Notes: generated by a model from the sequence alone, not told the origin. A DNA stretch of 64,000 bases from an uncultured delta proteobacterium (GCA_963843145.1 CAWJJC010000022.1:320001-384000), one strand, 5' to 3'. Positions 2 to 62,578 are shown, counted from the stretch's first letter. Made by a program: numbers and translations.

Positions 2-952
2 GCTGAAAAGATTAATCTCCGGCTGGGGGTCCTGGGCAACGTGAAATCCGACGGCCGTCCTATTTTTGGTTTTTCGGCCAAGGATCTGGTCAAAGTGGTC
101 CTGGATATCGAACCCGCCTGTCTTTTGGTGCCGGCCCATGTCTGGACCCCCTGGTTTTCGGTCTTCGGCTCTCAGTCCGGCTTTGATTCCCTGGAGGAAT
201 GCTTCGAAGAAGAAACGGCCCATATTTTTGCCATTGAAACCGGCCTGTCCTCGGACCCGGCCATGAACTGGCGCTGGTCGGCCTTGGATAACCTGACCTT
301 AATTTCCAATTCCGATGCCCATTCTCCCGCCAAAATCGGACGCGAGGCCAACATTTTTGAAACCGAGCTTTCCTACCCGGCCATCATCGAGGCCATTAAG
401 CAAAAAGACCCGTCCCGTTTTCCGGCCACCATTGAATTTTTTCCGGAAGAAGGAAAATATCACTTTGACGGCCACCGCAACTGCCGGGTCTGTTTCTCGC
501 CCGGGCAAAGTCGGGAAAACAATGATTGCTGCCCGGTTTGCGGCAAGAAAATCGTAATCGGGGTAATGCACCGGGTGGAAGAACTGGCCGATCGGCCGCC
601 GGGGTTTCGTCCCCCCGGGGCGATTTCGGCCATCCATTTAGTCCCCCTGGAGGAAATCATCGCCGCAGGATACGGTCTGGGGGTAGGATCGAAGCGTGTT
701 CGCCGAGAATACCTGAACCTTCTTGAACGGGGAGGCGCGGAACTGGAAATTCTGTTGGATAAATCGGCCGAGGAGTTGGCCTCCTTTATGGATTCCCGCC
801 TGGTCGAAGGGATCCTCGGGGTTCGTCAGGGGTTGGTCAGTGTGGCCCCCGGTTACGACGGGGTTTATGGTCGGGTTAACCTTTTTTCTGAAAACCCCAG
901 GTCAAACCAAGCCCAATCTCCTCCGGTCGACCGCCAGTTAAGACTTTTTTAA
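2..952 (+). CDS. Endonuclease Q-like PHP-family protein with zinc finger (5' partial)
   Basis: The frame is open from base 2. Motifs: PAHVWTPWFS, ETGLSSD, SNSDAHS, EEGKYHFDGHRNCRVC, CPVCGK...GVMHRVEELADR, PGYDGVYG. The protein ends in QLRLF. Confidence 0.8.
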   Translation, partial: AEKINLRLGVLGNVKSDGRPIFGFSAKDLVKVVLDIEPACLLVPAHVWTPWFSVFGSQSGFDSLEECFEEETAHIFAIETGLSSDPAMNWRWSALDNLTLISNSDAHSPAKIGREANIFETELSYPAIIEAIKQKDPSRFPATIEFFPEEGKYHFDGHRNCRVCFSPGQSRENNDCCPVCGKKIVIGVMHRVEELADRPPGFRPPGAISAIHLVPLEEIIAAGYGLGVGSKRVRREYLNLLERGGAELEILLDKSAEELASFMDSRLVEGILGVRQGLVSVAPGYDGVYGRVNLFSENPRSNQAQSPPVDRQLRLF

Positions 953-2337
953 TCCTCTCCCCGGGCTCTGGCCGGTTTGTCCTTTTTAAAGATATCCGGA
1001 TCAAGATTGTATTTTTTCAATAAGTGATAGAAATCGGCCCGATAACGGCCGGCCAAACCCGAGGCCTTGCTGACGTTACCCTGGGTCATTTCCAAAAGGC
1101 GGATAATATAGCTGCGTTCAAAATCCTCCCGGGCCTCTTTTAAGGGGACCAGCGGTTCATCGGATATTTCCCGACCCTTTAAAATCAAGTCCTCGGTGAT
1201 CAGTTCGTAGGGGGCCATGGCTACAGCGAACTCCAAAGAGTTTTCCAGTTCCCGGACATTACCCGGCCAATCATGGATCATCAATTTTTGCATGGCCATG
1301 GGGGTCAAGCCCTTGACCCCTTTTTTCATCCGTCGGGCCAGTTTCTTCAGGAAAAAGGCGACCAGGGCCGGGATATCCTCCTTGCGCTCCCTCAAGGGAG
1401 GTATGATGATAGGAATAACGTAAATCCGGTAGAATAAATCTTCCCGGAAGTTCCCCTTTTGCATTTCCTCTTCCAGATTCTTGTTGGTGGCCACCACCAC
1501 CCGAATATCGACCGAGATCGATTTTTTTCCTCCTAAGGGATAGAATTGCCGCTCCTGTAGCACCCGCAACAGTTTGGCCTGGATGGACAAGGGCATATCC
1601 CCGATCTCGTCCAGGAAAAATGTCCCTTTATCCGCCTGGGCCAACTGGCCTTTCATCGTGCGTATCGCTCCGGTAAAGGCCCCTTTTTCATAACCGAACA
1701 GCTCGCTCTCCAGTAGCGTTACCGGGATGGCCGCGCAATTGAGGGCCACAAAGGGCTGGTCTTTCCGGGCGCTGGCCAGATGAATGGCCTTGGCGATGAT
1801 CTCCTTGCCCGTTCCGCTTTCCCCCTGGATATAGACCGTGGAATCGGTCTCCGCGGCTCGGGAAACCATGGTGATGATTTCCCGCATCTTTTCACTCTTG
1901 GCAATGATATTGGGGATGTCAAAACGCTCCGAGAGCATTCCTTTCAGGCGTTTGATTTCCTGGGTCAGTTTTTTGTTTTCCAGGGCCTTTTCAATGTCGA
2001 TCAAAAGGGCCCGGGGGTCAAAAGGCTTGGTGAGATAGGTAAAGGCCCCGCTTTTAACGGCCTCTACGGCGGTCTCGATGCTCCCGAAGGCGGTTAAAAT
2101 GATCACGGATAGATCCGGATGAATCAAATGAAGTTGCCTCATCAGCGCGATGCCGTCCATTTTCTGAAGTTGTAGGTCAACCACCGCCAGGTCAAAGGCA
2201 TCTTCCCGGACCAGTTCCTCGGCCCCTTCTTCAGTCAAAGAAGTGGAAACCTCATAATCCGCCGCCTCCAACCGCATCCGGAGGAGTTCCAGCAGGTTTT
2301 TATCGTCATCCACGACCAATATTTTTCCCAAAGACAT
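949..2337 (-). CDS. Sigma54-dependent response regulator (REC-AAA+-HTH), GlrR/QseF-like
   Basis: Receiver domain (VVDDD, D-L-Q), Walker A GESGTGKE, GAFTGA, FLDEIGD and WPGNVRELEN. The C-terminus EAREDFERSYIIRLLEMTQGNVSKASGLAGRYRADFYHLL resembles GlrR. Confidence 0.9.
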   Translation of the reverse strand: MSLGKILVVDDDKNLLELLRMRLEAADYEVSTSLTEEGAEELVREDAFDLAVVDLQLQKMDGIALMRQLHLIHPDLSVIILTAFGSIETAVEAVKSGAFTYLTKPFDPRALLIDIEKALENKKLTQEIKRLKGMLSERFDIPNIIAKSEKMREIITMVSRAAETDSTVYIQGESGTGKEIIAKAIHLASARKDQPFVALNCAAIPVTLLESELFGYEKGAFTGAIRTMKGQLAQADKGTFFLDEIGDMPLSIQAKLLRVLQERQFYPLGGKKSISVDIRVVVATNKNLEEEMQKGNFREDLFYRIYVIPIIIPPLRERKEDIPALVAFFLKKLARRMKKGVKGLTPMAMQKLMIHDWPGNVRELENSLEFAVAMAPYELITEDLILKGREISDEPLVPLKEAREDFERSYIIRLLEMTQGNVSKASGLAGRYRADFYHLLKKYNLDPDIFKKDKPARARGED

Positions 2338-2346
2338 TCGCTTATC

Positions 2347-3180
2347 CTACTTTCTGAGTTGCTTCCGTTTTTTTTCAATCTCCAGGTCGATTTGTTCGGA
2401 CCGCTCCCAAAGCTCCATGATCTGCACCCAGGCCCGGGCCTCTTCGACCCGCAGGCTCTGAGGGAATTCCTTGAGCAGTTTCTTGAAATAAAAGATGGCC
2501 TTCTGGTAATCCTTCTTGGGGTAATTGGCCTGGGCATAAATGAAACCCAGGGCATAGAGGGCTTCATCCGCAGGGGGTTTGTGCCCGTACTTGGTCAGAA
2601 CGGCCTGATTTTCCTCCAGTGCCCGGTCAAAATCATTTTGAGCCCAAAGCTTCTGATTACGGGCCAATAAATCAGTCATTAACCACCGGGGGTCCGACTT
2701 GAACTCTTCCAGTTGTGTCCTGCAGGCCTCCATCTGGGTTTTAGCCTGCTGAAGCTGGCTTTTGGTTTTTTCTCCTTGTTGTAGCGCATCCGCATAAGCC
2801 GTATTTAACCCGATCCAGGCCCGGGCCTCCTCGGCATAGGGACTTTGGGGGAAATCCTTCTGAAGTTTCCACCAGAAGGCCAGGGCTTCTGGAAAATTTT
2901 TTCGGGGGTTTCCCGGCTGGCTTAAAGTGAGGGCCAGCTCTCTCAAGGCCTGGTCCCCCGGTGGTTTATGGGGATAGGCCGACAGGATTTCCTGAAAGAC
3001 TTGGAAGGACCGGTCGTACTTCCCTTCGCCGCGGAATTTTTTCCCCTGGACCATTTTATCCTGAACCTGCTCCCCTTCCCTGATCTCCTGGAAAAAAGTG
3101 CAGGCGGGTAAAAATAGGGTTACGATAAGGGCAACGTAAAATAGAAGGTACTTCCACTTCCCGGTTTGCTTTCGGCCCAC
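2347..3180 (-). CDS. TPR/BamD-like lipoprotein between kinase and regulator (positional analogue of QseG/YfhG)
   Basis: Lipobox LPAC after a hydrophobic segment. Two similar helical TPR-like blocks (…FPQSPYAEEARAW and …FPQSLRVEEARAW) are joined by a coiled coil. Confidence 0.7.
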   Translation of the reverse strand: MGRKQTGKWKYLLFYVALIVTLFLPACTFFQEIREGEQVQDKMVQGKKFRGEGKYDRSFQVFQEILSAYPHKPPGDQALRELALTLSQPGNPRKNFPEALAFWWKLQKDFPQSPYAEEARAWIGLNTAYADALQQGEKTKSQLQQAKTQMEACRTQLEEFKSDPRWLMTDLLARNQKLWAQNDFDRALEENQAVLTKYGHKPPADEALYALGFIYAQANYPKKDYQKAIFYFKKLLKEFPQSLRVEEARAWVQIMELWERSEQIDLEIEKKRKQLRK

Positions 3181-4568
3181 ACTTTTCCTCCATGCGCGGT
3201 AATGATTTTTTTAACGATCGCCAACCCCAGCCCGGTCCCTTTTACCAGCGGCGCCCCCGGTGTGGAGACTTGTCGAAATTTCTCAAAAATTAGCTGCAAC
3301 TGGTCCCCGGAGATGCCCGGTCCATTGTCCTTTACCGACACCTGGATAACCTCCGATCGGACCTCGGCGGCAACCGTGATGGTCCCGCCTTCGGGCGTAT
3401 ATTTTATGGCGTTACCCAGCAGATTTTTCAGTACCTGTAATAGCCGGTCATTATCCAGCGGGACGGCCGGCAACGATTCGGGAAGGTCCAGCCGGAGGGC
3501 GATTTTTTTATTGACCAGCAGGGGCTCCAGCAGTTGCGCGGCAATGGTAAACAAGGGGAGGGGATTGATCCGGGAGAAGTGGAAATGCATCATCCCGGCT
3601 TCCATCTTGGAGAAGTCCAAAAGGGAATTCACCAGCTCAATCAAACGGTTGCTCTCCTCGGAGACGATTCCCATGAGTTTCTGCTGTTTTTCGTTAAGGG
3701 TGCCCCCCACCCCTTCCAGCAGGAGGCTGGTCCCTTCCCGGATCGAGGTCAAGGGGGTCCTTAATTCGTGGGACATGACGGAAAAAAAATCGGATTTCAT
3801 TTTATCGATCTTATTCAATTGCGCACACATGGCATTAAAGGCCCGGGTGAGCCTGGCTACTTCCGGGGGAGACTGGATCTTTAAGTCCCCCTGGTAGTCC
3901 CCTGCGGCCATCTCTTTGGTCTTATCCACCAGGAGGGCAATCGGTCGGGTAATGCTACGGGTAATGAACACGGACATAACGATAATCAGGCCCAGAGTCA
4001 CCCCCCCGATAAAAATAATAAAGCGCAGAGAAGTCTCCTGGGCATCTCCCAATTTCCGTATCCTGGCCAGGTTGTTTTGCTGGGCCGAGACCCTTAATTC
4101 TTCCAACTGGTTGATCACGGTGTTAAGCACTTCCTCTTTCGCCTGATCCTGTTCTTTTCCGAATACCCGTTTTTTTAAGCGGGTAGAGGTCAAGGTCTCC
4201 GCTATCAAGGCGCTATAAACCAGCTCACCCTGGGCGATCCGGGCTAATAAGTCCTTTTCCCGTTCCCCTCCCGGTATGGTCCGGACTTCCGCTAATTGCT
4301 GTCGAAAATCCTCCTGGGCCTGAACATATTGATTATATATCGTCGGGTCCTTAAGAATAGAATATTTTTTTTCATAGCGACTTTGGGACAACAAGGCGTC
4401 GGTCAGCTTCCGGGTGTATTCCTGGATTCGGTTTTCCTGGATCAGGATCTCATTGGTTTCAACGCTGAAGTCCCGCAGCTCAAAAATAACAAATCCGCTG
4501 ATCAAACTGGACCCCAGCAGGATGATCAAGTATCCGGCGATCAGACGTGTCAGGATATTTAGGCGCAT
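3120..4568 (-). CDS. Sensor histidine kinase (2 TM, periplasmic sensor, HAMP, HisKA, HATPase), GlrK/QseE-like
   Basis: H-box SHELRTPL, N-box NLLGNAIKY, DNGPGI and GTGLGL, with two transmembrane segments. Confidence 0.92.
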   Translation of the reverse strand: MRLNILTRLIAGYLIILLGSSLISGFVIFELRDFSVETNEILIQENRIQEYTRKLTDALLSQSRYEKKYSILKDPTIYNQYVQAQEDFRQQLAEVRTIPGGEREKDLLARIAQGELVYSALIAETLTSTRLKKRVFGKEQDQAKEEVLNTVINQLEELRVSAQQNNLARIRKLGDAQETSLRFIIFIGGVTLGLIIVMSVFITRSITRPIALLVDKTKEMAAGDYQGDLKIQSPPEVARLTRAFNAMCAQLNKIDKMKSDFFSVMSHELRTPLTSIREGTSLLLEGVGGTLNEKQQKLMGIVSEESNRLIELVNSLLDFSKMEAGMMHFHFSRINPLPLFTIAAQLLEPLLVNKKIALRLDLPESLPAVPLDNDRLLQVLKNLLGNAIKYTPEGGTITVAAEVRSEVIQVSVKDNGPGISGDQLQLIFEKFRQVSTPGAPLVKGTGLGLAIVKKIITAHGGKVWAESKPGSGSTFYFTLPLS

Positions 4569-4799
4569 GAGTCGAGTTTAGCGGTGAGCAGTAGAATAGA
4601 TCTTCCGCCGGCTTGGCCGTTTGCTGGGATTCACTGATTGTTCTTCTTGCAGGTTAACGCATCCCTAGGCGAATAGTCAAGGGATACCAGGAGAGCCGAT
4701 CCGTCGGGCAGGATAATCGGGATGAGCTGAAACCGGACTTCTTATTTCGCTGGGTAAGGAAAGCGTTTGGTCAGGAACCATCCAGAGAAGAAAAGAGAC

Positions 4800-5832
4800 T
4801 CATGGCTTGGTTTGACCGGATTGGGGGTCCATGATCAGGGACGAGACCGTGACTGCCTCGAAAGCCGAACCCGGGACTTGCTGTAATTCGTGCAGATGAT
4901 CATTGTCCCAGCGTTCATCCGGGACCCCGGTGATATACCAGGCAGAGCCATTGTCGGCCAGGATCATCCCGATATTTCTTGAGGGCGCGCAGGATCACCT
5001 GCACCTCGGGTGAAAAACTGGAAAGATCAAAATCGGACTTGAGACGAAAACGCTGGCCTAAGGGAGGATACTGGGGTTCCGTGTGCCAAGAGGCGTAATG
5101 TCGGGCGGGCCAAATATATTCCTTCCGGGTGGCCGGTGCCGTAAAACGGAGGGCATGCCGGATTTCTCCGGCGGACACTTCTTCATAGCGGACCAGACCC
5201 GGCAGGATCGCCAACCCGGCGGCATCGGCCGAGGTCCAGGTTTCCGGCCGCAGCTCATAGGAATTTAAATTAAATTGAGCGCCGGACCCGGCCTGCCAGG
5301 ATCCGTCGGGCTGAGGCCAGGCATTATAGAGTTCGAACAAGCGGCAGTGATCGCGATCCAAAATTAACACGTGGCGGTCGCCTTCGGCGGAGGGTCCCCC
5401 CTCAATGGGTGGATTCAGCGGAATGGGATAGGGACCCGGGTCGCTTTCCTCCTGGTAATCAAAGGTAACCGGTACCTTGCTCTGGCTTCCCGGGACGACA
5501 ATGAAGGGGATTCCAATCGGCCTCCCTTCCCAGGTCCCCGCTCCAAAGTCGGCATGTACCCCTTTGGTTAAGCCGATGGTTTTAACGAACTGGGCGGAAA
5601 GAGGATCCGTCGGCAAATGATCGATGGGGGTGTTCCAAATATGATCGGCCGGGAAAACCGGACACCCGCTCAGGACAGGGCCGCTGCCGGCTCGAATGAT
5701 GACCGGCAGGAATATTTTTTCCTCAGCCCTCCCGGATATCACTCCCGACAGCGAGGCGAGCCCCCAAAAGATTACCGCCCACCATCCGGTGGAAACGTTG
5801 GATAGAGACCTGCGGGAAAGTTTGTCAAGCAT
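4800..5832 (-). CDS. Secreted hypothetical protein, frameshifted near 4971
   Basis: Signal-like N-terminus, then GCPVFPADHIWN, GDRHVL and WTSADAAGL. After KKY, one extra base shifts the frame. The shifted frame reads GMILADNGSAWYITGVPDERWDND...QTKP and stops at 4800-4802. Confidence 0.65.
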
Positions 5833-5858
5833 ATGAAGGCGGATAGGTACTATTAATC

Positions 5859-5890
5859 AAGGCCCCCGGCAGTGTGTTGCCGGGGGCCTT
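5859..5890 (-). terminator. Strong GC-rich hairpin downstream of the large repeat gene
   Basis: 13-bp inverted repeat AAGGCCCCCGGCA / TGCCGGGGGCCTT with only a weak U-tract. Confidence 0.5.
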
Positions 5891-5927
5891 CAAGAGCCGG
5901 GGGTCCGCCCGGCACACTGCCAGCTAA

Positions 5928-8900
5928 CTATCTCTTTTCCAGTCTTGTCACGAAGTGATAGGAATTGATATTAAAATTGGCGTCGCTGGTGTCGTTGATC
6001 CCATTATAACCGATGCTGGTTATCCGAATTTGATAATCCGAACCGGGTTTCAGCTTCAAGGGCGGGGTCCAGGTGTAGGAACCGTTGCCATTGGCGCCTA
6101 TTTTAGCCGATCGGACAATGTTTCTAATTACCGATCCATTTTTCAGCAGGTCAATTTTCACGGAAGTGCTCGGGTTGCCGGCATAATTCCAATCGATGGT
6201 CTGCGGTTTGCCAGCCTGCCAGGATTCTCCTCCATTGGGTGAGGTCAGGGCCAAGGTATTGGCACCCCACAAATATTGGAGCCGGGAATAGACCGCTCGA
6301 GGCTCTACCGTGTCGGGGCCGGTCCCATTATCCAAGACCCGAACGATGCCCCACCATTCTTCATTGGCATAGCCATCGGGTTGGGTGGTGGTGGCAAAGC
6401 CGCAGCGGCCGTGCAGGGCCGGGTCCGGGTCCGCCGGGCAGGAGGTATCCTCACTGTAACGCCCTTTCCACCATTCGTCCGAGTAGGACATGATCGTTCC
6501 CCCGACGCAGGTTTGGTTATTGGCGGCTATTTCTCTCCACAATCCTTCGGTAATATCCGCCTGAGTCGTTTTTCCTGACTTTTCATATTCATTGCCCCGA
6601 GTGTTATCAAAGGCATCGATCCCGTATTCCAGGATCAGGACCGGCTTAGTAGTTGCCGGACTACTGTCGGCGAACAAGGTCCCGAAAGAATTGCCCCGAT
6701 AGACGTTGGCTCCCCAGATATCCAGGGCTGGAACGGCCCCCTCAAAACCGGCCAGGGTGGCAGCCAGGTTTTGATCGGCCAAAGCCGTGGTTACCGGATG
6801 GGCCTTGGTCCCTTCTTCCAGATGGGCCACTTCCGCCAGTTCGTTGATCAGGCTGAAAAGCTGGGGAAGGCTGTTTCCGTATGCCTGGGGGAGGTTCAAA
6901 TTTTGACCCACCGACCACATCAAGATTGCCGGGTGGTCTTTGTGGGCGGCTACCATTTTCTGAAAATCGGCTTTGATCTGGTCCCGAACATTGGTGGGTG
7001 ATGCGGGATCGATGTCCAGACCATCGTTGATCCAGTAACCCGCAATGACATAAATCGGGTCCGATCCGTCGTTGTAAGCCTGGTCAAGAAAGTCGAAATG
7101 GTCGGCCGATTTTTCCCAGTTGTAGAGGCGGACGACATTGGCCCCCATGGCTTTCAGGACCGGCAGGTCTCGATTATAAATAGCACTATAGGGTGCCGTA
7201 AAGTAATCCCCGTAAGGAGCAGCATTAGGGTCTTCGCCAATGGGTACCGGGGAATAAACCACCCCTTTGACCGTAAAAGGAGCGCCGTTGACCAGGAGTT
7301 GTTTTCCGCTTACGTTGACGGGTGTGGGCTGGTAGGATGTCACGGTTACCGTCACCCCGACACCGGGGTTTTCCACATTGCCCACGTTGTCCGTGGCCCT
7401 GGATTTGATCACATAGGTCCCATTCCGAGGCGCAGTCCAGGAATAATTCCAGAGGATCGTTCCGTCGGCCGGCTTCCAAGTTGCGCCGCCGTCGGTTGAA
7501 ACCTCGACCTTTTGAACTCCGGATCCGCTACCATCCGTGGCCCCTCCGCTTATGGCTACCGCCGGATGTCGCCAAGTGGAGCCACTGGTGGGGTTGCTGA
7601 TCGAGGAATTCGGTTTGTTTGTTTCCAGATTAAAGGTAGCCTGGATGGAGGTATTGGCACTTATCGTGATCGTGCAAGGGTTGGTGCTTCCGCTACAGGC
7701 CCCGGTCCAGCCGCTAAATGTTGAATGGGTGTCGGCCAAGGCCGTGAGACTCACTGAGGTGTTGGCATTGAGGGATTCGTCGCAATCGGTGCCGCAACTG
7801 ATACCGGTCCCGGTCACCGTTCCGCTTCCCGTGCCGTTCTTGGAAACGGTCAGGGTATAGGTGGGATTGGCCGAGAAAGTGGCCTGAATCGTGTGGGCGC
7901 CAGTCACGTTGGAAAAAGAGTAACTTCCGGGGGTTCCTTTGGAAACCCCGTCCACCCGAACTCTATAGATCCGGTAGCCCGTATCGGGGGTGATGGTAAA
8001 GGTCTGGGAGGCGCCGGAGTTGACGTTGATCCCGCCGGAGGGCGAAATGGAACCGCCGCTCCCGGCCGAGGCGGTGATGGTGTAAGTTTTAAGGGCGAAA
8101 GCGGCGGTTACCGTAGTATTGGCATTCATGGTGACCGTGCAGGGGTTGGTGGTTCCGCTGCAGGCCCCGGTCCAGCCGGTGAAATTCGAGTTGGCATTGG
8201 CCGCGGCGGTCAGACTGACCACAGTCCCGGCATTAAAGGAGGTCCCGGTGGGTGCGTTGGTCACGGTGCCGCTGCCGGTTCCGTTCTTGGAAACGGTCAG
8301 AGTATAGTTAGGATTGGCCGAGAAAGTGGCCTGAATCGAGTGGGCGGCGGTCACGTTGGAAAAAGAGTAACTTCCGGGGGTTCCCTGGGCAACCCCGTCC
8401 ACTATCAGACCGGCAATCTGGTAGCCCGAATTGGGGGTGATGGTAAAGGTCTGGGAGGCGCCGGAGTTGACGTTGATCCCGCCGGAGGGCGAGATGGAAC
8501 CGCCGGTCCCGGCCGAGGCGGTGATGGTGTAAGTTTTAAGGGCGAAAGCGGCGGTTACCGTAGTATTGGCATTCATGGTGACCGTGCAGGGGTTGGTGGT
8601 TCCGCTGCAGGCCCCGGTCCAGCCGGTGAAATTCGAGTTGGCATTGGCCGCGGCGGTCAGACTGACCACAGTCCCGGCATTAAAGGAGGTCCCGGTGGGT
8701 GCGTTGGTCACGGTGCCGCTGCCGGTTCCGTTCTTGGAAATGGTCAGAGTATAGTTAGGATTGGCCGAGAAAGTGGCCTGAATCGAGTGGGCGGCGGTCA
8801 CGTTGGAAAAAGAGTAACTTCCGGGGGTTCCCTGGGCAACCCCGTCCACTATCAGACCGGCAATCTGGTAGCCCGAATTGGGGGTGATGGTAAAGGTCTG

Positions 8901-10457
8901 GGAGGCGCCGGAGTTGACGTTGATCCCGCCGGAGGGCGAAATGGAACCGCCGGTCCCGGCCGAGGCGGTGATGGTGTAAGTTTTAAGGGCGAAAGCGGCG
9001 GTTACCGTAGTATTGGCATTCATGGTGACCGTGCAGGGGTTGGTGGTTCCGCTGCAGGCCCCGGTCCAGCCGGTGAAATTCGAGTTGGCATTGGCCGCGG
9101 CGGTCAGACTGACCACAGTCCCGGCATTAAAGGAGGTCCCGGTGGGTGCGTTGGTCACGGTGCCGCTGCCGGTTCCGTTCTTGGAAACGGTCAGAGTATA
9201 GTTAGGATTGGCCGAGAAAGTGGCCTGAATCGAGTGGGCGGCAATCACGTTGGAAAAAGAGTAACTTCCGGGGGTTCCCTGGGCAACCCCGTCCACTATC
9301 AGACCGGCAATCTGGTAGCCCGAATTGGGGGTGATGGTAAAGGTCTGGGAGGCGCCGGAGTTGACGTTGATCCCGCCGGAGGGCGAAATGGAACCGCCGG
9401 TTCCGGCCGAGGCGGTGATGGTGTAAGTTTTAAGGGCGAAAGCGGCGGTTACCGTAGTATTGGCATTCATGGTGACCGTGCAGGGGTTGGTGGTTCCGCT
9501 GCAGGCCCCGGTCCAGCCGGTGAAATTCGAGTTGGCATTGGCCGCGGCGGTCAGACTGACCACAGTCCCGGCATTAAAGGAGGTCCCGGTGGGTGCGTTG
9601 GTCACGGTGCCGCTGCCGGTTCCGTTCTTGGAAACGGTCAGAGTATAGTTAGGATTGGCCGAGAAAGTGGCCTGAATCGAGTGGGCGGCAGTCACGTTGG
9701 AAAAAGAGTAACTTCCGGGGGTTCCCTGGGCAACCCCGTCCACTATCAGACCGGCGATCTGGTAGCCCGAATTGGGGGTGATGGTAAAGGTCTGGGAGGC
9801 GCCGGAGTTGACGTTGATCCCGCCGGAGGGCGAGATGGAACCGCCGGTCCCGGCCGAGGCGGTGATGGTGTAAGTTTTAAGGGCGAAAGCGGCGGTTACC
9901 GTAGTATTGGCATTCATGGTGACCGTGCAGGGGTTGGTGGTTCCGCTGCAGGCCCCGGTCCAGCCGGTGAAATTCGAGTTGGCATTGGCCGCGGCGGTCA
10001 GACTGACCACAGTCCCGGCATTAAAGGAGGTCCCGGTGGGTGCGTTGGTCACGGTGCCGCTGCCGGTTCCGTTCTTGGAAATGGTCAGAGTGAATTGAGA
10101 AGCCGGTACTGTGTAGCTTACTTCGTTGGATTTGGCGCTTTCGAATCCTTCGGTGTCGAAAGCGGTCAGAGCGAAATAATAGGTGACCCCATCGGTTAAA
10201 TTGGTTACCGTATAGGTCGTCACTTTGCCCAGGATTATAGGATTGGAATAGTTCCCAGACGAGGTTCCATAATAAAGGTTATAGCCGGAGAGATCCGATT
10301 CGCTGTTGGCATCCCAGGCCAAGGTTACCTGGGCGGCCTGGGCCTGGACGATCAGGCCCAGTAACAGCATGAACATTAAGGAAAGACCGATAATTTTGGA
10401 AAATAAACGGGGTGAGAAGAAGTCAAGATTATCCCTACGGACTGGGATCGCGCTCAT
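5928..10457 (-). CDS. Large secreted modular protein: signal peptide, FN3, tandem InlB-B-like repeats, Ig-like domain, clan GH-A TIM barrel, C-terminal Kre9/Knh1-like Ig domain
   Basis: Signal peptide ending in AQA. FN3 segment VTLAWDAN...YYFALTAFDTEGFESAKSNEV. Repeats containing FTGWTGAC. VEVSTDGGATW Ig-like domain. GH barrel RDLPVLKAMGANVVRLY...ILEYG...EEWWGI. Terminal SPNGGESW domain. Confidence 0.85.
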   Translation of the reverse strand: MSAIPVRRDNLDFFSPRLFSKIIGLSLMFMLLLGLIVQAQAAQVTLAWDANSESDLSGYNLYYGTSSGNYSNPIILGKVTTYTVTNLTDGVTYYFALTAFDTEGFESAKSNEVSYTVPASQFTLTISKNGTGSGTVTNAPTGTSFNAGTVVSLTAAANANSNFTGWTGACSGTTNPCTVTMNANTTVTAAFALKTYTITASAGTGGSISPSGGINVNSGASQTFTITPNSGYQIAGLIVDGVAQGTPGSYSFSNVTAAHSIQATFSANPNYTLTVSKNGTGSGTVTNAPTGTSFNAGTVVSLTAAANANSNFTGWTGACSGTTNPCTVTMNANTTVTAAFALKTYTITASAGTGGSISPSGGINVNSGASQTFTITPNSGYQIAGLIVDGVAQGTPGSYSFSNVIAAHSIQATFSANPNYTLTVSKNGTGSGTVTNAPTGTSFNAGTVVSLTAAANANSNFTGWTGACSGTTNPCTVTMNANTTVTAAFALKTYTITASAGTGGSISPSGGINVNSGASQTFTITPNSGYQIAGLIVDGVAQGTPGSYSFSNVTAAHSIQATFSANPNYTLTISKNGTGSGTVTNAPTGTSFNAGTVVSLTAAANANSNFTGWTGACSGTTNPCTVTMNANTTVTAAFALKTYTITASAGTGGSISPSGGINVNSGASQTFTITPNSGYQIAGLIVDGVAQGTPGSYSFSNVTAAHSIQATFSANPNYTLTVSKNGTGSGTVTNAPTGTSFNAGTVVSLTAAANANSNFTGWTGACSGTTNPCTVTMNANTTVTAAFALKTYTITASAGSGGSISPSGGINVNSGASQTFTITPDTGYRIYRVRVDGVSKGTPGSYSFSNVTGAHTIQATFSANPTYTLTVSKNGTGSGTVTGTGISCGTDCDESLNANTSVSLTALADTHSTFSGWTGACSGSTNPCTITISANTSIQATFNLETNKPNSSISNPTSGSTWRHPAVAISGGATDGSGSGVQKVEVSTDGGATWKPADGTILWNYSWTAPRNGTYVIKSRATDNVGNVENPGVGVTVTVTSYQPTPVNVSGKQLLVNGAPFTVKGVVYSPVPIGEDPNAAPYGDYFTAPYSAIYNRDLPVLKAMGANVVRLYNWEKSADHFDFLDQAYNDGSDPIYVIAGYWINDGLDIDPASPTNVRDQIKADFQKMVAAHKDHPAILMWSVGQNLNLPQAYGNSLPQLFSLINELAEVAHLEEGTKAHPVTTALADQNLAATLAGFEGAVPALDIWGANVYRGNSFGTLFADSSPATTKPVLILEYGIDAFDNTRGNEYEKSGKTTQADITEGLWREIAANNQTCVGGTIMSYSDEWWKGRYSEDTSCPADPDPALHGRCGFATTTQPDGYANEEWWGIVRVLDNGTGPDTVEPRAVYSRLQYLWGANTLALTSPNGGESWQAGKPQTIDWNYAGNPSTSVKIDLLKNGSVIRNIVRSAKIGANGNGSYTWTPPLKLKPGSDYQIRITSIGYNGINDTSDANFNINSYHFVTRLEKR
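7861..10095 (-). repeat. Five tandem 447-bp (149-aa) intragenic repeats
   Basis: Equivalent positions recur at 8119, 8566, 9013, 9460 and 9907 (period 447). Units differ at only a few sites, and the last unit diverges in its 3' half. Confidence 0.97.
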
Positions 10458-10517
10458 GGCAATACCTCCTTAAATTTGCTGCTAAGCGAAATGCAGCCAC
10501 AGGAGGTACCGCATTCG

Positions 10518-10612
10518 CCTGGCGACCCTGCTACCGTATGTGGCGACAAAAGCGTCACACGTAGGCCAGTGGCTTTGCGTCCCACCCTTTCGGATGGTTT
10601 GCCTTTTTCAGG
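10518..10612 (-). ncRNA. c-di-GMP-I (GEMM-I) riboswitch aptamer
   Basis: The minus strand reads CCTGAAAAAGGCAAACCATCCGAAAGGGTGGGACGCAAAGCCACTGGCCTAC...GGTAGCAGGGTCGCCAGG. It has the GAAA tetraloop P2, the GACGCAAAG junction and P1 CCTG/CAGG, and lies 60 nt upstream of the start codon. Confidence 0.93.
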
Positions 10613-10649
10613 TTTATTTATTAGGACCCAAGGGTCCGATCTGTTCTAT

Positions 10650-10665
10650 TGCAAGTTGAAGACCA
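10650..10665 (-). promoter_or_regulatory. Candidate sigma54 (-24/-12) promoter
   Basis: Minus strand TGGTCTTCAACTTGCA has GG-N10-GC spacing with a perfect TTGCA. The predicted start is about 25 nt before the aptamer. Confidence 0.6.
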
Positions 10666-10928
10666 AAAAATAAACCAGGCTCGCCGAAAGAAATCGATAA
10701 CAAATTTCAGTGATTAACTTCGGCAGCGACGATCACCGAAATTTAATCACTTTCTGGTTCTACAAATTAATGCTCTTAGTTGCAAAAATTGGATTTAGGC
10801 TAAAAGGCGGGCTTTTCCTGGATGGCTCAAAAATAGAGGGAAGAGAAAATGGAACGGAATGAACAAGTCCATCCGTCCCTTTATCGGGTCCGGATGGACT
10901 TAACAATGAACCGTCGGGTAGAGGTAAG

Positions 10929-11693
10929 TTAGTCTTTCAGCAATTGATCTACAAATTTATTCACTTCCAGATTCAGTACCTGGTCTTTTTCAAATGGCGC
11001 CCGTCCTTCCAGGTCGGCTTCGATGATTTGATCGTTGTAAGGCAGGAACCCCAGGAAGGTGAAGCCCGGAAGCTGTTTGAGCAAAAATTCCTTGTCGCTT
11101 TCGTTGCGGATCTTGTTGCCCACCAGGACGATGTTCTTCAACCCCAAGTCCTGGGCTAGCTTCTTGATTTGATGGGCCGTCTCAATGCTTCGCTTGCCGG
11201 GCTCCACTACCACAATCAACTTATTGACCGACGAGGCGGTTCCCCGGCCCAAATGTTCGATCCCGGCCTCCATATCCAGGACCACCACTTCGTCCCGGGC
11301 CAGGATCAGGTGGGTGATCAGGGTCTTGAGCATCACGCTCTCCGGGCAGATGCAGCCGCCGCCGCCCCGCTTGACCCCACCCATGACCATGACCCGGATA
11401 TTGCCCTTCTGAACCGAGAGCTTCTCCGGCAGGTCGCTCACGTGGGGGTTTAATTTAAAAAAGCTCCCCATGGTGCCGGTCTTGGATTCGGTCCGCTCCT
11501 CGATCAGCTCCTTCATCTCGGAGATGGGGACGATCAATTCCGGGTGTTCGATTCCCAGCGCACCGGCCAGGTTGGCGTCGGGGTCGGCATCAATCGCCAG
11601 GACCTTGTTCCCCCGGTCACTGAAATTCTTGATAATCAAGGAGGCCAGGGTGGTTTTACCCACGCCCCCCTTTCCACTGATGGCTATTTTCAT
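10929..11693 (-). CDS. cooC: CooC/AcsF-type nickel-insertion ATPase
   Basis: MKIAISGKGGVGKTT, DADP, GGGCICP (CxC) and DMEAGIEHLGRG. The start was moved to the ATG at 11693, which follows GGGAG. Confidence 0.88.
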   Translation of the reverse strand: MKIAISGKGGVGKTTLASLIIKNFSDRGNKVLAIDADPDANLAGALGIEHPELIVPISEMKELIEERTESKTGTMGSFFKLNPHVSDLPEKLSVQKGNIRVMVMGGVKRGGGGCICPESVMLKTLITHLILARDEVVVLDMEAGIEHLGRGTASSVNKLIVVVEPGKRSIETAHQIKKLAQDLGLKNIVLVGNKIRNESDKEFLLKQLPGFTFLGFLPYNDQIIEADLEGRAPFEKDQVLNLEVNKFVDQLLKD

Positions 11694-11827
11694 GAATGAT
11701 CTCCCATCGTATCTGGAATTTAGGTTAATATAGGTGAATTCTAACCCTTTTCCCTCCTGCCAGCAATACAAAACGGAAAGGTAAGCGATGTTTGGAGACC
11801 AGTGAGGATAAAAGTCTAAAGCGGCAC

Positions 11828-60147: not shown

Positions 60148-61695
60148 TCAATTCGATATGATTGGCAGATAATTCTTGTAGTTCAACGAAGGTTTATCAT
60201 CAAAAGTAGCCGTAAGGGACATGTCACTGCTCATGGTTATCGTGCATTGAGGATCATTGCTAACACAAGCTCCCGACCAGCCGACAAAAATCGAATCGGC
60301 ATCCGGAGTTGCCGTAATGGTTACTGCCGTATCATCATTAAAGGTGGACCCTTCGGGGCTGTTGTTTACCGTACCCCTTCCGGTCCCCTTCTTGGAAATG
60401 CTCAAGGAGTGAGTGGACGAATTAGTTGTTTTATAAATAAAAGTGGCGTTTATCTGGTGATTGGTTCTTACATTTTTGAAAGAATAGGAGCTGACCGTTC
60501 CCACGGAAATCCCGTCCACCTTAACCACACTAATCTGGAAATTTGAAGAGGCATTGATGAGGTAAGTCTGATTTGTACCGTAGGAGACCGTGGTAATTCC
60601 GGCAGGTGTAATGGAGCCATTCGGCCCGGCCAGGGCCGTTAGGCTGTAGGTTTTCAAGGTGAACGAGGCGGTTATCGATTGATTGGCGTCCATGGTCACT
60701 GTGCAGGTGCTGGCTTGGCCACTGCAAGCTCCGCCCCATCCGGAAAATATTGAACTAGAATATGCGGAAGCGGTCAAAGTTACTTTTGTACCTTTTTTGA
60801 AGGTAGTCCCCCCTGGTTTATTGGTCACATTTCCCTGGCCATTTCCGATCTTGGAAATGGATAGAATGTACGCGTCCGCGGATGTTCTGGGCAAGAAGGT
60901 GGCGGACAGGGTGTGGTTGGCCGTGACGGAGGAGAAAGTGTAGGAGGTGACCGCTCCGACCGACACGCCATCCACCAACACATTGGCCACGTTAAATCCC
61001 GTGGCGGGAGTAATGGCATAGGTCTGGCTGCCTCCGTAGTTGACGGTCAGGGACCCGGTGGGACTTACTGTTCCGTTGGCCCCGGCCGAGGCTGTCAGGG
61101 TGAAGGTTTTCAGGGCGAAATTAGCCATTACGGACTGGCTGCCGTTAAGATTCACTGTGCAGGGGTTGGCCGTTCCGCTGCAGGCCCCGTTCCATCCGGT
61201 AAACGTGGAATTGGAATTTGAAGCCGCTGTCAGACTGACCGAGGTAACGCTGCTGAAAGACTCGCTGCAATCGGTTCCGCAGTTGATCCCGGTTCCCGTA
61301 ATCGTACCCGCGCCGGTACCGGCTTGATTGACGGATAGCGAAAAAAGGGTAGTCGAGGGCGTATATTTGACCTCATTGGAAAAGCCACTTTCCATTCCTT
61401 GGGTATTATAAGCGGTTACCGAGAGGAAATAGGTGATATTCTGATCCAGGTTCCCCGCCGTGGCTTGGGTTTGGTTCCCTGTATCTAGAGTCCAGGAGTA
61501 CTGGCGCGATTGAACCCCGAGATAGATTTTATATCCGGCCAGGTCAGGTTCGGTATTTGGATCCCAAGCCAGGGTAACTTCGGCAGAAAAGCCGATGGAT
61601 GAACAGACAAGGTTGAATAAGACGACTGCGGAAAAAGGACCTAATTTGTATAAAATGGGGGAAAGGATCTTTTTGAATCTGGCCTGTAAAAACAA
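60148..61695 (-). CDS. Secreted FN3 + InlB-B-like repeat protein, paralogue of 5928-10457
   Basis: VTLAWDPNTEPDLAGY...ESGFSNEV, followed by diverged FTGWNGAC/FSGWGGAC/FVGWSGAC and alternating repeats. The protein ends in YLPIISN. Confidence 0.88.
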   Translation of the reverse strand: MFLQARFKKILSPILYKLGPFSAVVLFNLVCSSIGFSAEVTLAWDPNTEPDLAGYKIYLGVQSRQYSWTLDTGNQTQATAGNLDQNITYFLSVTAYNTQGMESGFSNEVKYTPSTTLFSLSVNQAGTGAGTITGTGINCGTDCSESFSSVTSVSLTAASNSNSTFTGWNGACSGTANPCTVNLNGSQSVMANFALKTFTLTASAGANGTVSPTGSLTVNYGGSQTYAITPATGFNVANVLVDGVSVGAVTSYTFSSVTANHTLSATFLPRTSADAYILSISKIGNGQGNVTNKPGGTTFKKGTKVTLTASAYSSSIFSGWGGACSGQASTCTVTMDANQSITASFTLKTYSLTALAGPNGSITPAGITTVSYGTNQTYLINASSNFQISVVKVDGISVGTVSSYSFKNVRTNHQINATFIYKTTNSSTHSLSISKKGTGRGTVNNSPEGSTFNDDTAVTITATPDADSIFVGWSGACVSNDPQCTITMSSDMSLTATFDDKPSLNYKNYLPIISN

Positions 61696-61756: not shown

Positions 61757-61813
61757 GGCAAAAAATCTGCCAATTAGGGGTAAAATAGAAAAGTTTTTAA
61801 TATCAAACAGTTA
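61757..61813 (-). promoter_or_regulatory. Sigma54 promoter with upstream IHF site
   Basis: Minus strand TGGCAGATTTTTTGCC (61757-61772, GG-N10-GC). TATCAAACAGTTA at 61801-61813 matches WATCAANNNNTTR exactly. Confidence 0.72.
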
Positions 61814-61946: not shown

Positions 61947-62578
61947 GTGTCTGCTGTGTAAAACGTATGAGCAGTCGATTAAAGTCCGACCTTGGGAATT
62001 CATTAGCTCGCCCACGTACCTGGGGGGAGGTGTTAATGGTGGCTGGAAGGACTAAGTTCCCCGACCAAGGCTCGGAGAGGGAGCTGAGCAAACCTGTGGG
62101 TTGGAGCGCAAGCGAAGCCGGAAGTAGCCCCGAAATTTTTAAAAAGATTCAGGACATTCAGAGGAAACAATACCGGAAGGCCAAGCAGGAGAAGGAGTAC
62201 CGTTGCTATCTTCTCTATGACAAGGTGTATCGGCTGGACGTCCTGAGCCAGGCCTACCAACTGGTCAAAGCGAACAAGGGAGCGCTGGGCAAAGACGGCG
62301 AAATCTTTGAGCGCCTAGAGGAGACAGGAGGAGGAGTCGAGGAGCATCTGGAAACGATTGCCGGTGAACTTAAGCGAAAATTCTACCAGCCTCAGGCTGT
62401 CCGTGGGCTGTATATACCCAAAGCATCCGGAGGCCGACGACTGCTGGGCATCCCGCTGATCAAGGACAGGGTAGTGCAGATGGCTGTAAAAATAGCGATC
62501 GATCCGATCTTCGAAGTCGATTCTCAGGACAACTCCTACGGATTCAGGCCGGAGCGGAGTGCCCACCAAAGGCAATAA
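61947..62578 (+). mobile_element. Truncated group II intron remnant (5' RNA end plus N-terminal reverse transcriptase)
   Basis: LYDKVYRLDVL..AYQLVKANKGA.G.DG, YQPQAVR..YIPK..G..R.LGIP..KDRVVQ and SYGFRPERSAHQ, then a stop. No YADD motif and no DV/DVI seen. Confidence 0.85.

Follow-up and report, generated by a model that had tools for sequence, protein, structure and literature searches.

When, and in response to which signals, does a bacterium make a very large secreted protein? The question is raised by a stretch of 64,000 nucleotides (nt) from an uncultured delta proteobacterium (GCA_963843145.1, CAWJJC010000022.1:320001-384000, in our numbering G000:C22:320001-384000 and here called the window), in which the gene for a 1509-amino-acid (aa) secreted repeat protein, recognized by its domain matches at 5928-10457, follows a sigma-54 type -24/-12 motif and a riboswitch aptamer of the cyclic di-GMP (c-di-GMP) class I. 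All parts of this cassette lie on the minus strand. A preliminary description of the same DNA had listed these elements together with a second secreted protein and a kinase, a tetratricopeptide repeat (TPR) lipoprotein and a response regulator, and had proposed that the repeat protein is controlled in two layers, by sigma-54 and by the c-di-GMP riboswitch. The whole set is present in the sequence in the order described, and the proposal of two layers is strongly backed by conservation in related genomes and metagenomes.

We consider it probable that the window holds one member of a conserved cassette, in which a sigma-54 promoter, a c-di-GMP-I aptamer and a sequestor of the ribosome binding site (RBS) precede the gene for a giant secreted protein with an N-terminal fn3 domain, and in which production of that protein is gated by both layers; the motif in the window itself is a weak member of the cassette. 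The promoter would fire only once an enhancer-binding activator is on, and the strand directly after the aptamer would base-pair with the RBS and the start codon. A sigma-54 promoter followed by a riboswitch in the leader implies that transcription would need the signal of the activator while translation would be tuned by c-di-GMP, and, if this is true, costly surface proteins would be made only when the two signals agree.

The putative promoter element and the aptamer

Read 5' to 3' on the minus strand, the window carries a ParA/MinD-like gene, a hairpin, the -24/-12 motif, the aptamer, an expression platform, the open reading frame (ORF) of the 1509-aa protein, the gene for the second secreted protein, and the genes for the kinase, the TPR lipoprotein and the regulator. 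The upstream neighbour, the ParA/MinD-like gene (10929-11771), ends in the hairpin, an inverted repeat followed by TTGTTC (10867..10899) that is kept in five of six close relatives and is a likely terminator, so that the cassette needs a promoter of its own. The candidate for that promoter is TGGTCTTCAACTTGCA (10650-10665), of the form GG-N10-GC, with the GG and the GC invariant in relatives.

Such motifs were scored by a hand-made consensus weighting with a maximum of 21.2, not by a trained model, and the background was taken from random 80-nt windows, 1.6% of which reach a score of at least 18 and 5.1% a score of at least 16.5. The motif of the window scores 16.5, a value matched by those 5.1% of random windows, and it is only the comparison with relatives that makes it credible: in the window, in the genomes G001, G002 and G003 and in the loci L127 and L128, TGG, a 10-nt spacing and TTGC stay the same amid diverging flanks. 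The -24 element reads TGGTCT in five of these six and TGGTAT, which is nearer to consensus, in G003.

The association is clearer at a greater distance. The first 130 residues of the 1509-aa protein, used as a query, gave 79 metagenome loci, and when fn3-led loci were scanned with a covariance model of our own, R1, built for these aptamers, 22 of the 79 proved to have an aptamer ahead of the fn3-led gene; a check with Rfam confirmed the riboswitch in 19 of the 20 loci submitted. The aptamer also stands before paralogue loci in five genomes of a fourth genus, and in one of a second genus, of the same family. Nineteen of 29 distinct 80-nt regions upstream of homologous aptamers score at least 18, and 26 score at least 16.5 (seven of them between 16.5 and 17.5), although the loci compared here and below are related, so that counts across them overstate independence; despite this kinship their spacers and flanks differ widely. 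The typical high-scoring motif is TGGCAY-N5-TTGCT, ending 20-54 nt before the aptamer. The same pattern appears in a sample of 151 genomes of the phylum, 58 of which have an R1 match: among the 28 best-per-genome loci that were scored, a motif of at least 18 precedes 9 of the 12 riboswitches with an fn3 N-terminal homologue downstream and 1 of the 16 others.

The aptamer of the window (10517-10612) is matched by two Rfam covariance models, RF01051 (GEMM-I) at 74 bits with a gathering score of 35 and RF03167 (c-di-GMP-I-GGC) at 64.9 bits with a gathering score of 59, and on both the earlier assignment to the c-di-GMP-I class is borne out. The cmscan E-value prefers RF03167; after the GC that closes the first helix, the next base is A in the window, as in the canonical class, and G in the RF03167 consensus. 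The orthologous aptamers of G001-G003 are near-identical and likewise pass the gathering score of RF01051. Both key letters for ligand choice, which we take to be G20 and C92 in the numbering of Vc2, are present in the window, as an unpaired G in front of the GCAAAC helix and a C preceding the P1 3' strand. Across 14 aligned aptamers P1 covaries, and an unpaired G before GCAAAC, the GACGCAAAGCC block and a GC before the P1 3' strand are invariant. A published rule, given in the part of the source consulted, assigns G at the key unpaired position to aptamers for c-di-GMP and A to those for cGAMP (PMC6140456). By these letters we read the aptamer as a canonical sensor of c-di-GMP, its putative ligand.

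A second aptamer occurs in the same genome outside the window (G000:C22:140536-140631, plus strand; L001:1501-1596; 76.8 bits). It precedes the gene for a 257-aa protein with fn3 and InlB-B repeats and shares the RBS-sequestering design described below; some 5 kb before it, at C22:135100, is an activator gene. Side features were also seen at two of the metagenome loci, namely a gene for an HU/IHF-type DNA-binding protein directly upstream of the sigma-54/riboswitch cassette (L142:3211-3564, plus strand), and a TfoX_N gene together with a TonB receptor downstream of the cargo gene (L139:4267-4650, plus strand).

The expression platform and the direction of the switch

Between the aptamer and the start codon (10455-10457) lies a platform of 59 nt (10455..10516 with the start codon), which includes an anti-RBS strand, GGTACCTCCT (10501-10510), that pairs with the Shine-Dalgarno (SD) sequence AGGAGGTATT (10461-10470); an alternative hairpin joins 10511-10518 to 10486-10494. 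No base of the SD is left unpaired in the minimum free energy (MFE) structure or in the ensemble, and the same holds at the second riboswitch of the genome. To compare leaders, the first 28 nt after the aptamer were paired with the window from -18 to +3 in 31 distinct leaders, with 200 shuffles of each. The sequestor duplex averages -19.9 kcal/mol, and the shuffles -9.9 kcal/mol; in 28 of the 31 leaders at most 5 of the 200 shuffles match the real duplex. The letters of the sequestor vary by lineage, as in GCAGCACCUUUC with GAAAGGUGCUUC or ACAGCAUCCUCA with UGGGGAUGCUGU. The distance from aptamer to start codon is 48-75 nt across 33 leaders, and the pairing probability of the RBS exceeds that of the leader's own shuffled control in 28 of these 33, by small margins. 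No U-tract terminator is present in the leader of the window. From the conserved RBS sequestor and the lack of such a terminator it is well supported that the riboswitch would act on the initiation of translation.

As to the direction of the switch, the sequestor helix reaches in the MFE structure into the 3' strand of the aptamer, its core needing no aptamer bases, and a helix that reaches so far would leave the ligand-bound state more open; we lean slightly towards an ON switch.

Several points weigh against the two-layer reading, beyond the hand-made score and the kinship of the loci already named. The -24 element of the window, TGGTCT, is far from consensus and by itself at chance level; four loci (L147, L210, L227 and L235) are exceptions that lack the sigma-54 motif; and the second aptamer of the genome has no such motif within 150 nt. 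On the side of the riboswitch, the RBS is predicted to be paired with or without a folded aptamer, and because it is paired in both states an effect of the ligand on translation is left without explanation. Only 6 of 32 leaders show significant complementarity of the anti-RBS strand to the aptamer's 3' strand, and on this count an OFF switch, with that 3' strand as a decoy for the anti-RBS strand, was rejected as a general rule.

One could conclude from the state of the promoter that the -24/-12 element has decayed in this genus, that another type of promoter is in use and that the riboswitch layer alone is left. In the window, G001, G002, L127 and L128 the -24 element does differ from TGGCAY at two positions, and the second riboswitch of the genome works without a motif of this kind. 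Yet decay would hardly have kept GG, the 10-nt spacing and TTGC invariant in six relatives among neighbouring bases that vary, the -24 element of G003 is closer to consensus, and a simple scan of 4500-11000 finds no sigma-70-type site near the leader; we regard a decayed remnant as improbable. The claim that the big gene has a sigma-54 promoter is therefore retained in a qualified form, in that the motif is present and its conservation in relatives makes up for a score which alone is at chance level, and the two-layer reading remains the one we prefer.

The spacing found in the two comparisons, a -24/-12 motif, an aptamer 20-54 nt later and a start codon 48-75 nt after the aptamer, is a searchable signature. 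With it, genes of this kind, and through co-variation their activators, can be found in uncultured Desulfobacterota-like bacteria.

The kinase, lipoprotein and regulator genes as candidate activator

Which activator would open the promoter is a separate question. The genome has one rpoN (one Sigma54_DBD match) and 40 full-length sigma-54 activators (Sigma54_activat matches), and one candidate stands close at hand, in the three genes that follow the two secreted proteins. They encode a sensor histidine kinase (3120-4568) with a transmembrane segment, a periplasmic domain of about 150 aa, a second transmembrane segment, HAMP, HisKA and HATPase_c; a TPR lipoprotein with the lipobox LPAC (2347-3180), whose start overlaps the end of the kinase gene; and an NtrC-type response regulator (949-2337) with REC, an AAA+ domain with GAFTGA (residue 219) and a weak HTH_8. 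A PHP-domain gene on the plus strand is convergent with the regulator gene.

The preliminary description called this trio GlrKR-like, and in gene order the name is apt. In enterobacteria GlrK (QseE), the outer-membrane lipoprotein QseG (YfhG) and GlrR (QseF) activate an adjacent sigma-54 promoter, that of glmY. The order of kinase, lipoprotein and sigma-54 response regulator is the same in the window, and in NCBIfam the regulator matches GlrR best, but the match (NF011695) gives 449 bits with an equivalog cut-off of 763, and the next, to the PEP-CTERM regulator PrsR (TIGR02915), gives 435 bits with a cut-off of 502.6. The lipoprotein matches only TPR, BamD/YfiO-like and YbgF-like models, and no glmY-like target is known here. 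Since both regulator scores fall below their cut-offs, the trio is GlrKR-like in layout only. G003 has about 430 bp inserted before its cassette promoter, and in this insert another sigma-54-like motif, TGGTATAGCCCTTGCG, stands no more than about 10 nt ahead of a strong hairpin (-23 kcal/mol) with a T-run (L018:14457-14525, minus strand). By analogy this element may be a small sigma-54-dependent RNA, reminiscent of glmY beside glrK; no second motif of this type was found in the genome of the window.

The model first offered for this locus makes the adjacent trio the dedicated activator of both sigma-54 promoters in the window, that of the big gene and that of a paralogue, so that these genes would integrate c-di-GMP with a signal from the envelope. 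The paralogue (60148-61695, minus strand; 515 aa) has a signal sequence, fn3 and InlB-B repeats. The motif claimed before it is indeed there, TGGCAGATTTTTTGCC at 61757-61772, and scores better than that of the cassette; it is kept in G001, and the pattern GGCA..AT.TTTTG.CTA is kept in both G001 and G003 with diverging flanks, the -12 GC being GT in G003. The R1 model found no riboswitch at the paralogue (L206). Directly upstream of this promoter region, and divergent from it, are a match to group II intron D1-D4 (RF02003, 51.8 bits; 61972-62111, plus strand) and a 203-aa ORF (61967-62578, plus strand).

Gene neighbourhoods give this model part of its support. The order of big gene, partner gene, kinase, TPR lipoprotein and regulator recurs in all four genomes of the genus, on the metagenome contig L129 and in G007, of a second genus. 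Behind the orthologous trio of G005, from a third genus, comes an fn3 N-terminal homologue with a motif of its own, AGGCATTTTTTTTGCT, and no riboswitch, and in G013, of the fourth genus, a strong sigma-54 motif directly follows the regulator gene; from these two neighbours we conclude that adjacent sigma-54 targets recur. A comparison across the family also shows that fn3/InlB-B homologues occur in 15 of the 17 genomes that have the trio and in none of the four that lack it, although these four may stem from one loss.

The remaining evidence points the other way. The gap between the 1509-aa ORF and the partner gene is 95 nt and that between the partner gene and the kinase gene about 240 nt, and within the latter a block CTTGACT-N18-TAACCTG (4650-4681), a candidate sigma-70-type promoter, is invariant in five genomes of two genera whose surroundings diverge, which suggests that the trio has a promoter of its own. 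Of the 21 genomes in the family, 17 have orthologues of the trio; their regulators are 61-96% identical, and their TPR protein has its full length in three genera, with a shorter version in the fourth. These orthologues lie beside fn3 genes in three genera only; we conclude that the trio is a separate, family-wide transcription unit. In six genomes of the fourth genus the riboswitch genes are on other contigs or, in one genome, about 576 kb away from the trio, and no trio was found near 19 more distant metagenome riboswitch loci, many of which lie on short contigs. The target adjacent to the trio in G013 is a REC-only gene without fn3.

Nor is an upstream site shared by the promoters demonstrable, the candidates being of low complexity. 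An A/T-flanked TGC-N8-GCA block (10760..10792), about 110-125 nt upstream of the -12 element, has kept flanks and a variable spacer in five of six close relatives and is absent in G003; as a low-complexity block with no demonstrated excess over chance, it is a weak candidate for an upstream activator site. A search by eye for a common site was given up with lineage-specific, low-complexity candidates only, such as TTACA-N4-TGTAA in L132, L135 and L148 and a TGCAC-type site in L137 and L150-152, and in the family of the window the shared upstream core reduces to a T-rich TTTTG[CT], too simple to test.

With a candidate promoter of its own, a spread across the family and no linkage in the fourth genus, the trio is connected to the promoter by an argument from proximity among about 40 activators, as it was at the outset; what the comparisons add is that the adjacency recurs. 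It stays a candidate activator, and we judge it possible, but less likely than some other arrangement, that it is the dedicated one.

The motif in G013 deserves a remark in itself. Near consensus, TGGCACATCCCTTGCT (L219:6210-6225, minus strand) lies about 130 nt past the stop of the orthologous regulator gene and leads genes for small secreted proteins and for a REC-only protein of 119 aa; this motif may be a native target for the fourth-genus trio.

The secreted proteins and their known counterparts

The 1509-aa protein begins with a signal sequence that ends in AQA-AQ and continues with fn3, about 11 InlB-B (Flg_new_2) repeats, an Ig-like domain, a GH158-like TIM barrel (6258-7331; residues about 1031-1400) and a Kre9/KNH-like Ig domain (6000-6242). 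The repeat models are above cut-off, with Flg_new_2 (PF18998) at 328.5 bits in 11 stretches and TIGR02543 at 65.5 bits, and in the DNA a 447-nt unit is repeated 5.1 times at 7812-10091 with 97% identity. Repeat number varies in relatives, the proteins of G003 and G001 being about 1150-1200 aa long and the homologues listed 885-1183 aa. A Pfam scan gave no PEP-CTERM match. The proteins that other lineages place under this cassette have PKD, K319L-like, Big_9 or purple-acid-phosphatase-N repeats and lack a GH domain; the body of the cargo is therefore variable, and the N-terminus and control region are constant.

The TIM barrel, for which the Pfam matches to GH72 and GH2_C are weak, has its closest solved sequence in the GH158 structure 9oro_A (E 1.9e-8, 36.9 bits, domain residues 68-297; low identity); where 9oro_A has the motifs N-E and E-F-G, the aligned tip has Q-N and E-Y-G. 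The acid/base site is Gln1185-Asn1186 (codons 6900-6905), where 9oro and 45 of 85 homologous domains have N-E, and the nucleophile Glu1277 (6627-6629) is kept, in LILEYGID. An inactivated glycosidase tip, as first described, is thus what the sequence of the repeat protein predicts, with Asn for the acid/base Glu. At the NE site the window's protein and its eight closest relatives have QN or HN, and of the 133 positions conserved to at least 85% among domains with both Glu, the window's protein keeps 119. Both catalytic Glu are present in 41 of the 85 domains; in 26 the acid/base alone is lost, in 8 the nucleophile alone and in 10 both.

Because the conserved positions are kept and the acid/base is lost, we conclude that the fold and its pocket are selected with the standard mechanism disabled, and the tip is probably a glycan-binding pseudo-enzyme, its glycan possibly a beta-glucan. 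The alternative is that the tip is still an enzyme in which another residue or an activated substrate takes the place of the acid/base, for example a transglycosylase or an enzyme for substrates with good leaving groups. Natural glycosidases without an acid/base Glu exist, the nucleophile and 119 of 133 conserved positions are in place, and a QN or HN state shared by nine related proteins suggests function over decay. Against it stands the repeated loss of catalytic residues in every combination among the 85 domains, which fits binding modules better than enzymes, and we think an active tip distinctly unlikely. As a pseudo-enzyme, the barrel would in this genus form a tip that binds glycan without hydrolysis, on a stalk of InlB-B repeats. 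Among the tip-domain homologues (P0124-P0243), the 44 of 85 aligned domains without one or both Glu make the GH158-like family, about half of whose members lack catalytic residues, a by-product of this work; giant surface proteins with GH158-like domains also come, by source names, from Nitrospirota and multicellular magnetotactic bacteria.

The second secreted protein had been described as the partner of the first. It has a signal sequence, but the 305-aa ORF as read (4915-5832) is a shortened one: an extra A near 4973 shifts the frame relative to relatives, whose intact orthologues have 343 aa, and the remainder of the gene (4806..5832) runs to about 4806. The frameshift may be an assembly error. 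The gene would be co-transcribed with the big gene here, but it is no obligate partner. The pairing is confined to the genus of the window, the metagenomic relatives L127 and L129, and G007; in G005 and G010, of the same family, the partner gene is elsewhere, and at 80 loci where other phyla carry the partner family, no GH-like, Kre9, InlB-B-repeat or fn3 N-terminal homologue lies within 8 kb. The partnership thus holds as a trait of one lineage.

The partner family itself is very large, with at least 8000 word-index matches, 9958 representatives at 50% identity (E<=0.001) and no fewer than 595 loci in genomes of many phyla. All of the 150 listed representatives are at least 44% identical, mostly 56-73%. 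Identities of 55-70% extend across Chloroflexota, Acidobacteriota, Actinomycetota and Proteobacteria and even to a metagenome-assembled genome of Methanomicrobiales (loci L047-L126). It has no Pfam model, 35 members searched at E<=5 giving scattered matches to domains of unknown function only, and phmmer against the sequences of the Protein Data Bank (PDB) gave nothing below E 0.5. An AlphaFold model (pLDDT 68.5) had no Foldseek match in the PDB at E<=0.001. In a wide structural search all scores were below Z 5, the best being Z 3.5 (2pi8_A, rmsd 3.9, 101 aligned), and 10 of the 11 top rows were glycan-active proteins with a double-psi beta-barrel (MltA, expansin, GH45, cerato-platanin). From the model, such a fold is a lead, not a finding. 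Half of 30 longer family members carry fn3, Flg_new_2, Kre9_KNH, beta-helix, Laminin_G_3, SLH, PKD, BACON or Malectin domains, which fits an extracellular, glycan-related role, and the partner is probably glycan-active. A secreted family of about 10,000 clusters at 50% identity that lacks both a Pfam model and a clear solved fold is a further by-product that merits a study of its own.

It is tempting to join all of these parts into a conserved gate with two keys for giant fn3-led surface proteins in many uncultured bacteria of the phylum from sediment and soil, in which the envelope-sensing trio opens the sigma-54 promoter, c-di-GMP unmasks the RBS, and the cargo is a glycan-specific adhesin accompanied by a secreted enzyme family of new fold. 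We hold this full combination to be unlikely. Apart from the locus itself, the window carries a complete rRNA operon (16S, two tRNAs, 23S and 5S) at 30731-36048 on the plus strand.

That c-di-GMP riboswitches precede genes for surface proteins is well known, and GH158 enzymes are known to act on beta-1,3-glucan. The tip shares with the GH158 endo-beta-1,3-glucanases (9oro and others) a clan GH-A TIM barrel and the aligned NE and E-[FY]-G motifs, and differs from them in its Asn for the acid/base Glu, in the Gln for the preceding Asn and in its place at the end of a repeat protein of about 1500 aa.

For the control region, the nearest counterpart is in Geobacter, in the same broad bacterial group. 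In Geobacter bemidjiensis the gene for an ancestral GEMM-regulated fn3 protein has been triplicated (Gbem_1796/1798/1799), and its products are thought to be on the outer surface (PMC2996986). To call the system undescribed, as the preliminary description did, was therefore too strong, since GEMM-regulated fn3 surface proteins were noted there in 2010; the coupling to sigma-54 is the part we did not find in print. Both systems have a GEMM-I aptamer directly before fn3-led, presumably surface-exposed proteins with paralogue expansion, but the portion of PMC2996986 at hand mentions no sigma-54 promoter and draws no connection between its GEMM-regulated fn3 genes and RpoN. According to the sections consulted, in many GEMM-I aptamers of Geobacter an A confers sensing of cGAMP (PMC6140456, PMC6456294), whereas all 14 aptamers aligned here have G; GEMM-Ib riboswitches for cGAMP precede genes for cytochromes, pili and polysaccharides, and a Geobacter riboswitch works through a terminator (PMC6456294) in place of the RBS-masking platform seen here. 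The cargo of the window has, in addition, a pseudo-glycosidase tip.

A full-text search, which covered mostly titles and the beginnings of abstracts and left most subscription journals outside, found no published sigma-54 promoter that feeds a c-di-GMP riboswitch. The closest parallel for control in two layers is gbpA of Vibrio cholerae, where, in the part of the report consulted, a regulator at the promoter and the c-di-GMP-I riboswitch Vc1 act on one surface or colonisation factor (PMC4545359). There the promoter layer is cAMP-CRP, where here it would be sigma-54 with an enhancer-binding activator, and the cargo is unrelated and a single gene, where here the cassette is conserved across a protein family. 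Set beside these systems, what is new is that a sigma-54 promoter and a putatively translational c-di-GMP-I riboswitch are coupled, in a conserved way, before genes for fn3-led giant secreted proteins.

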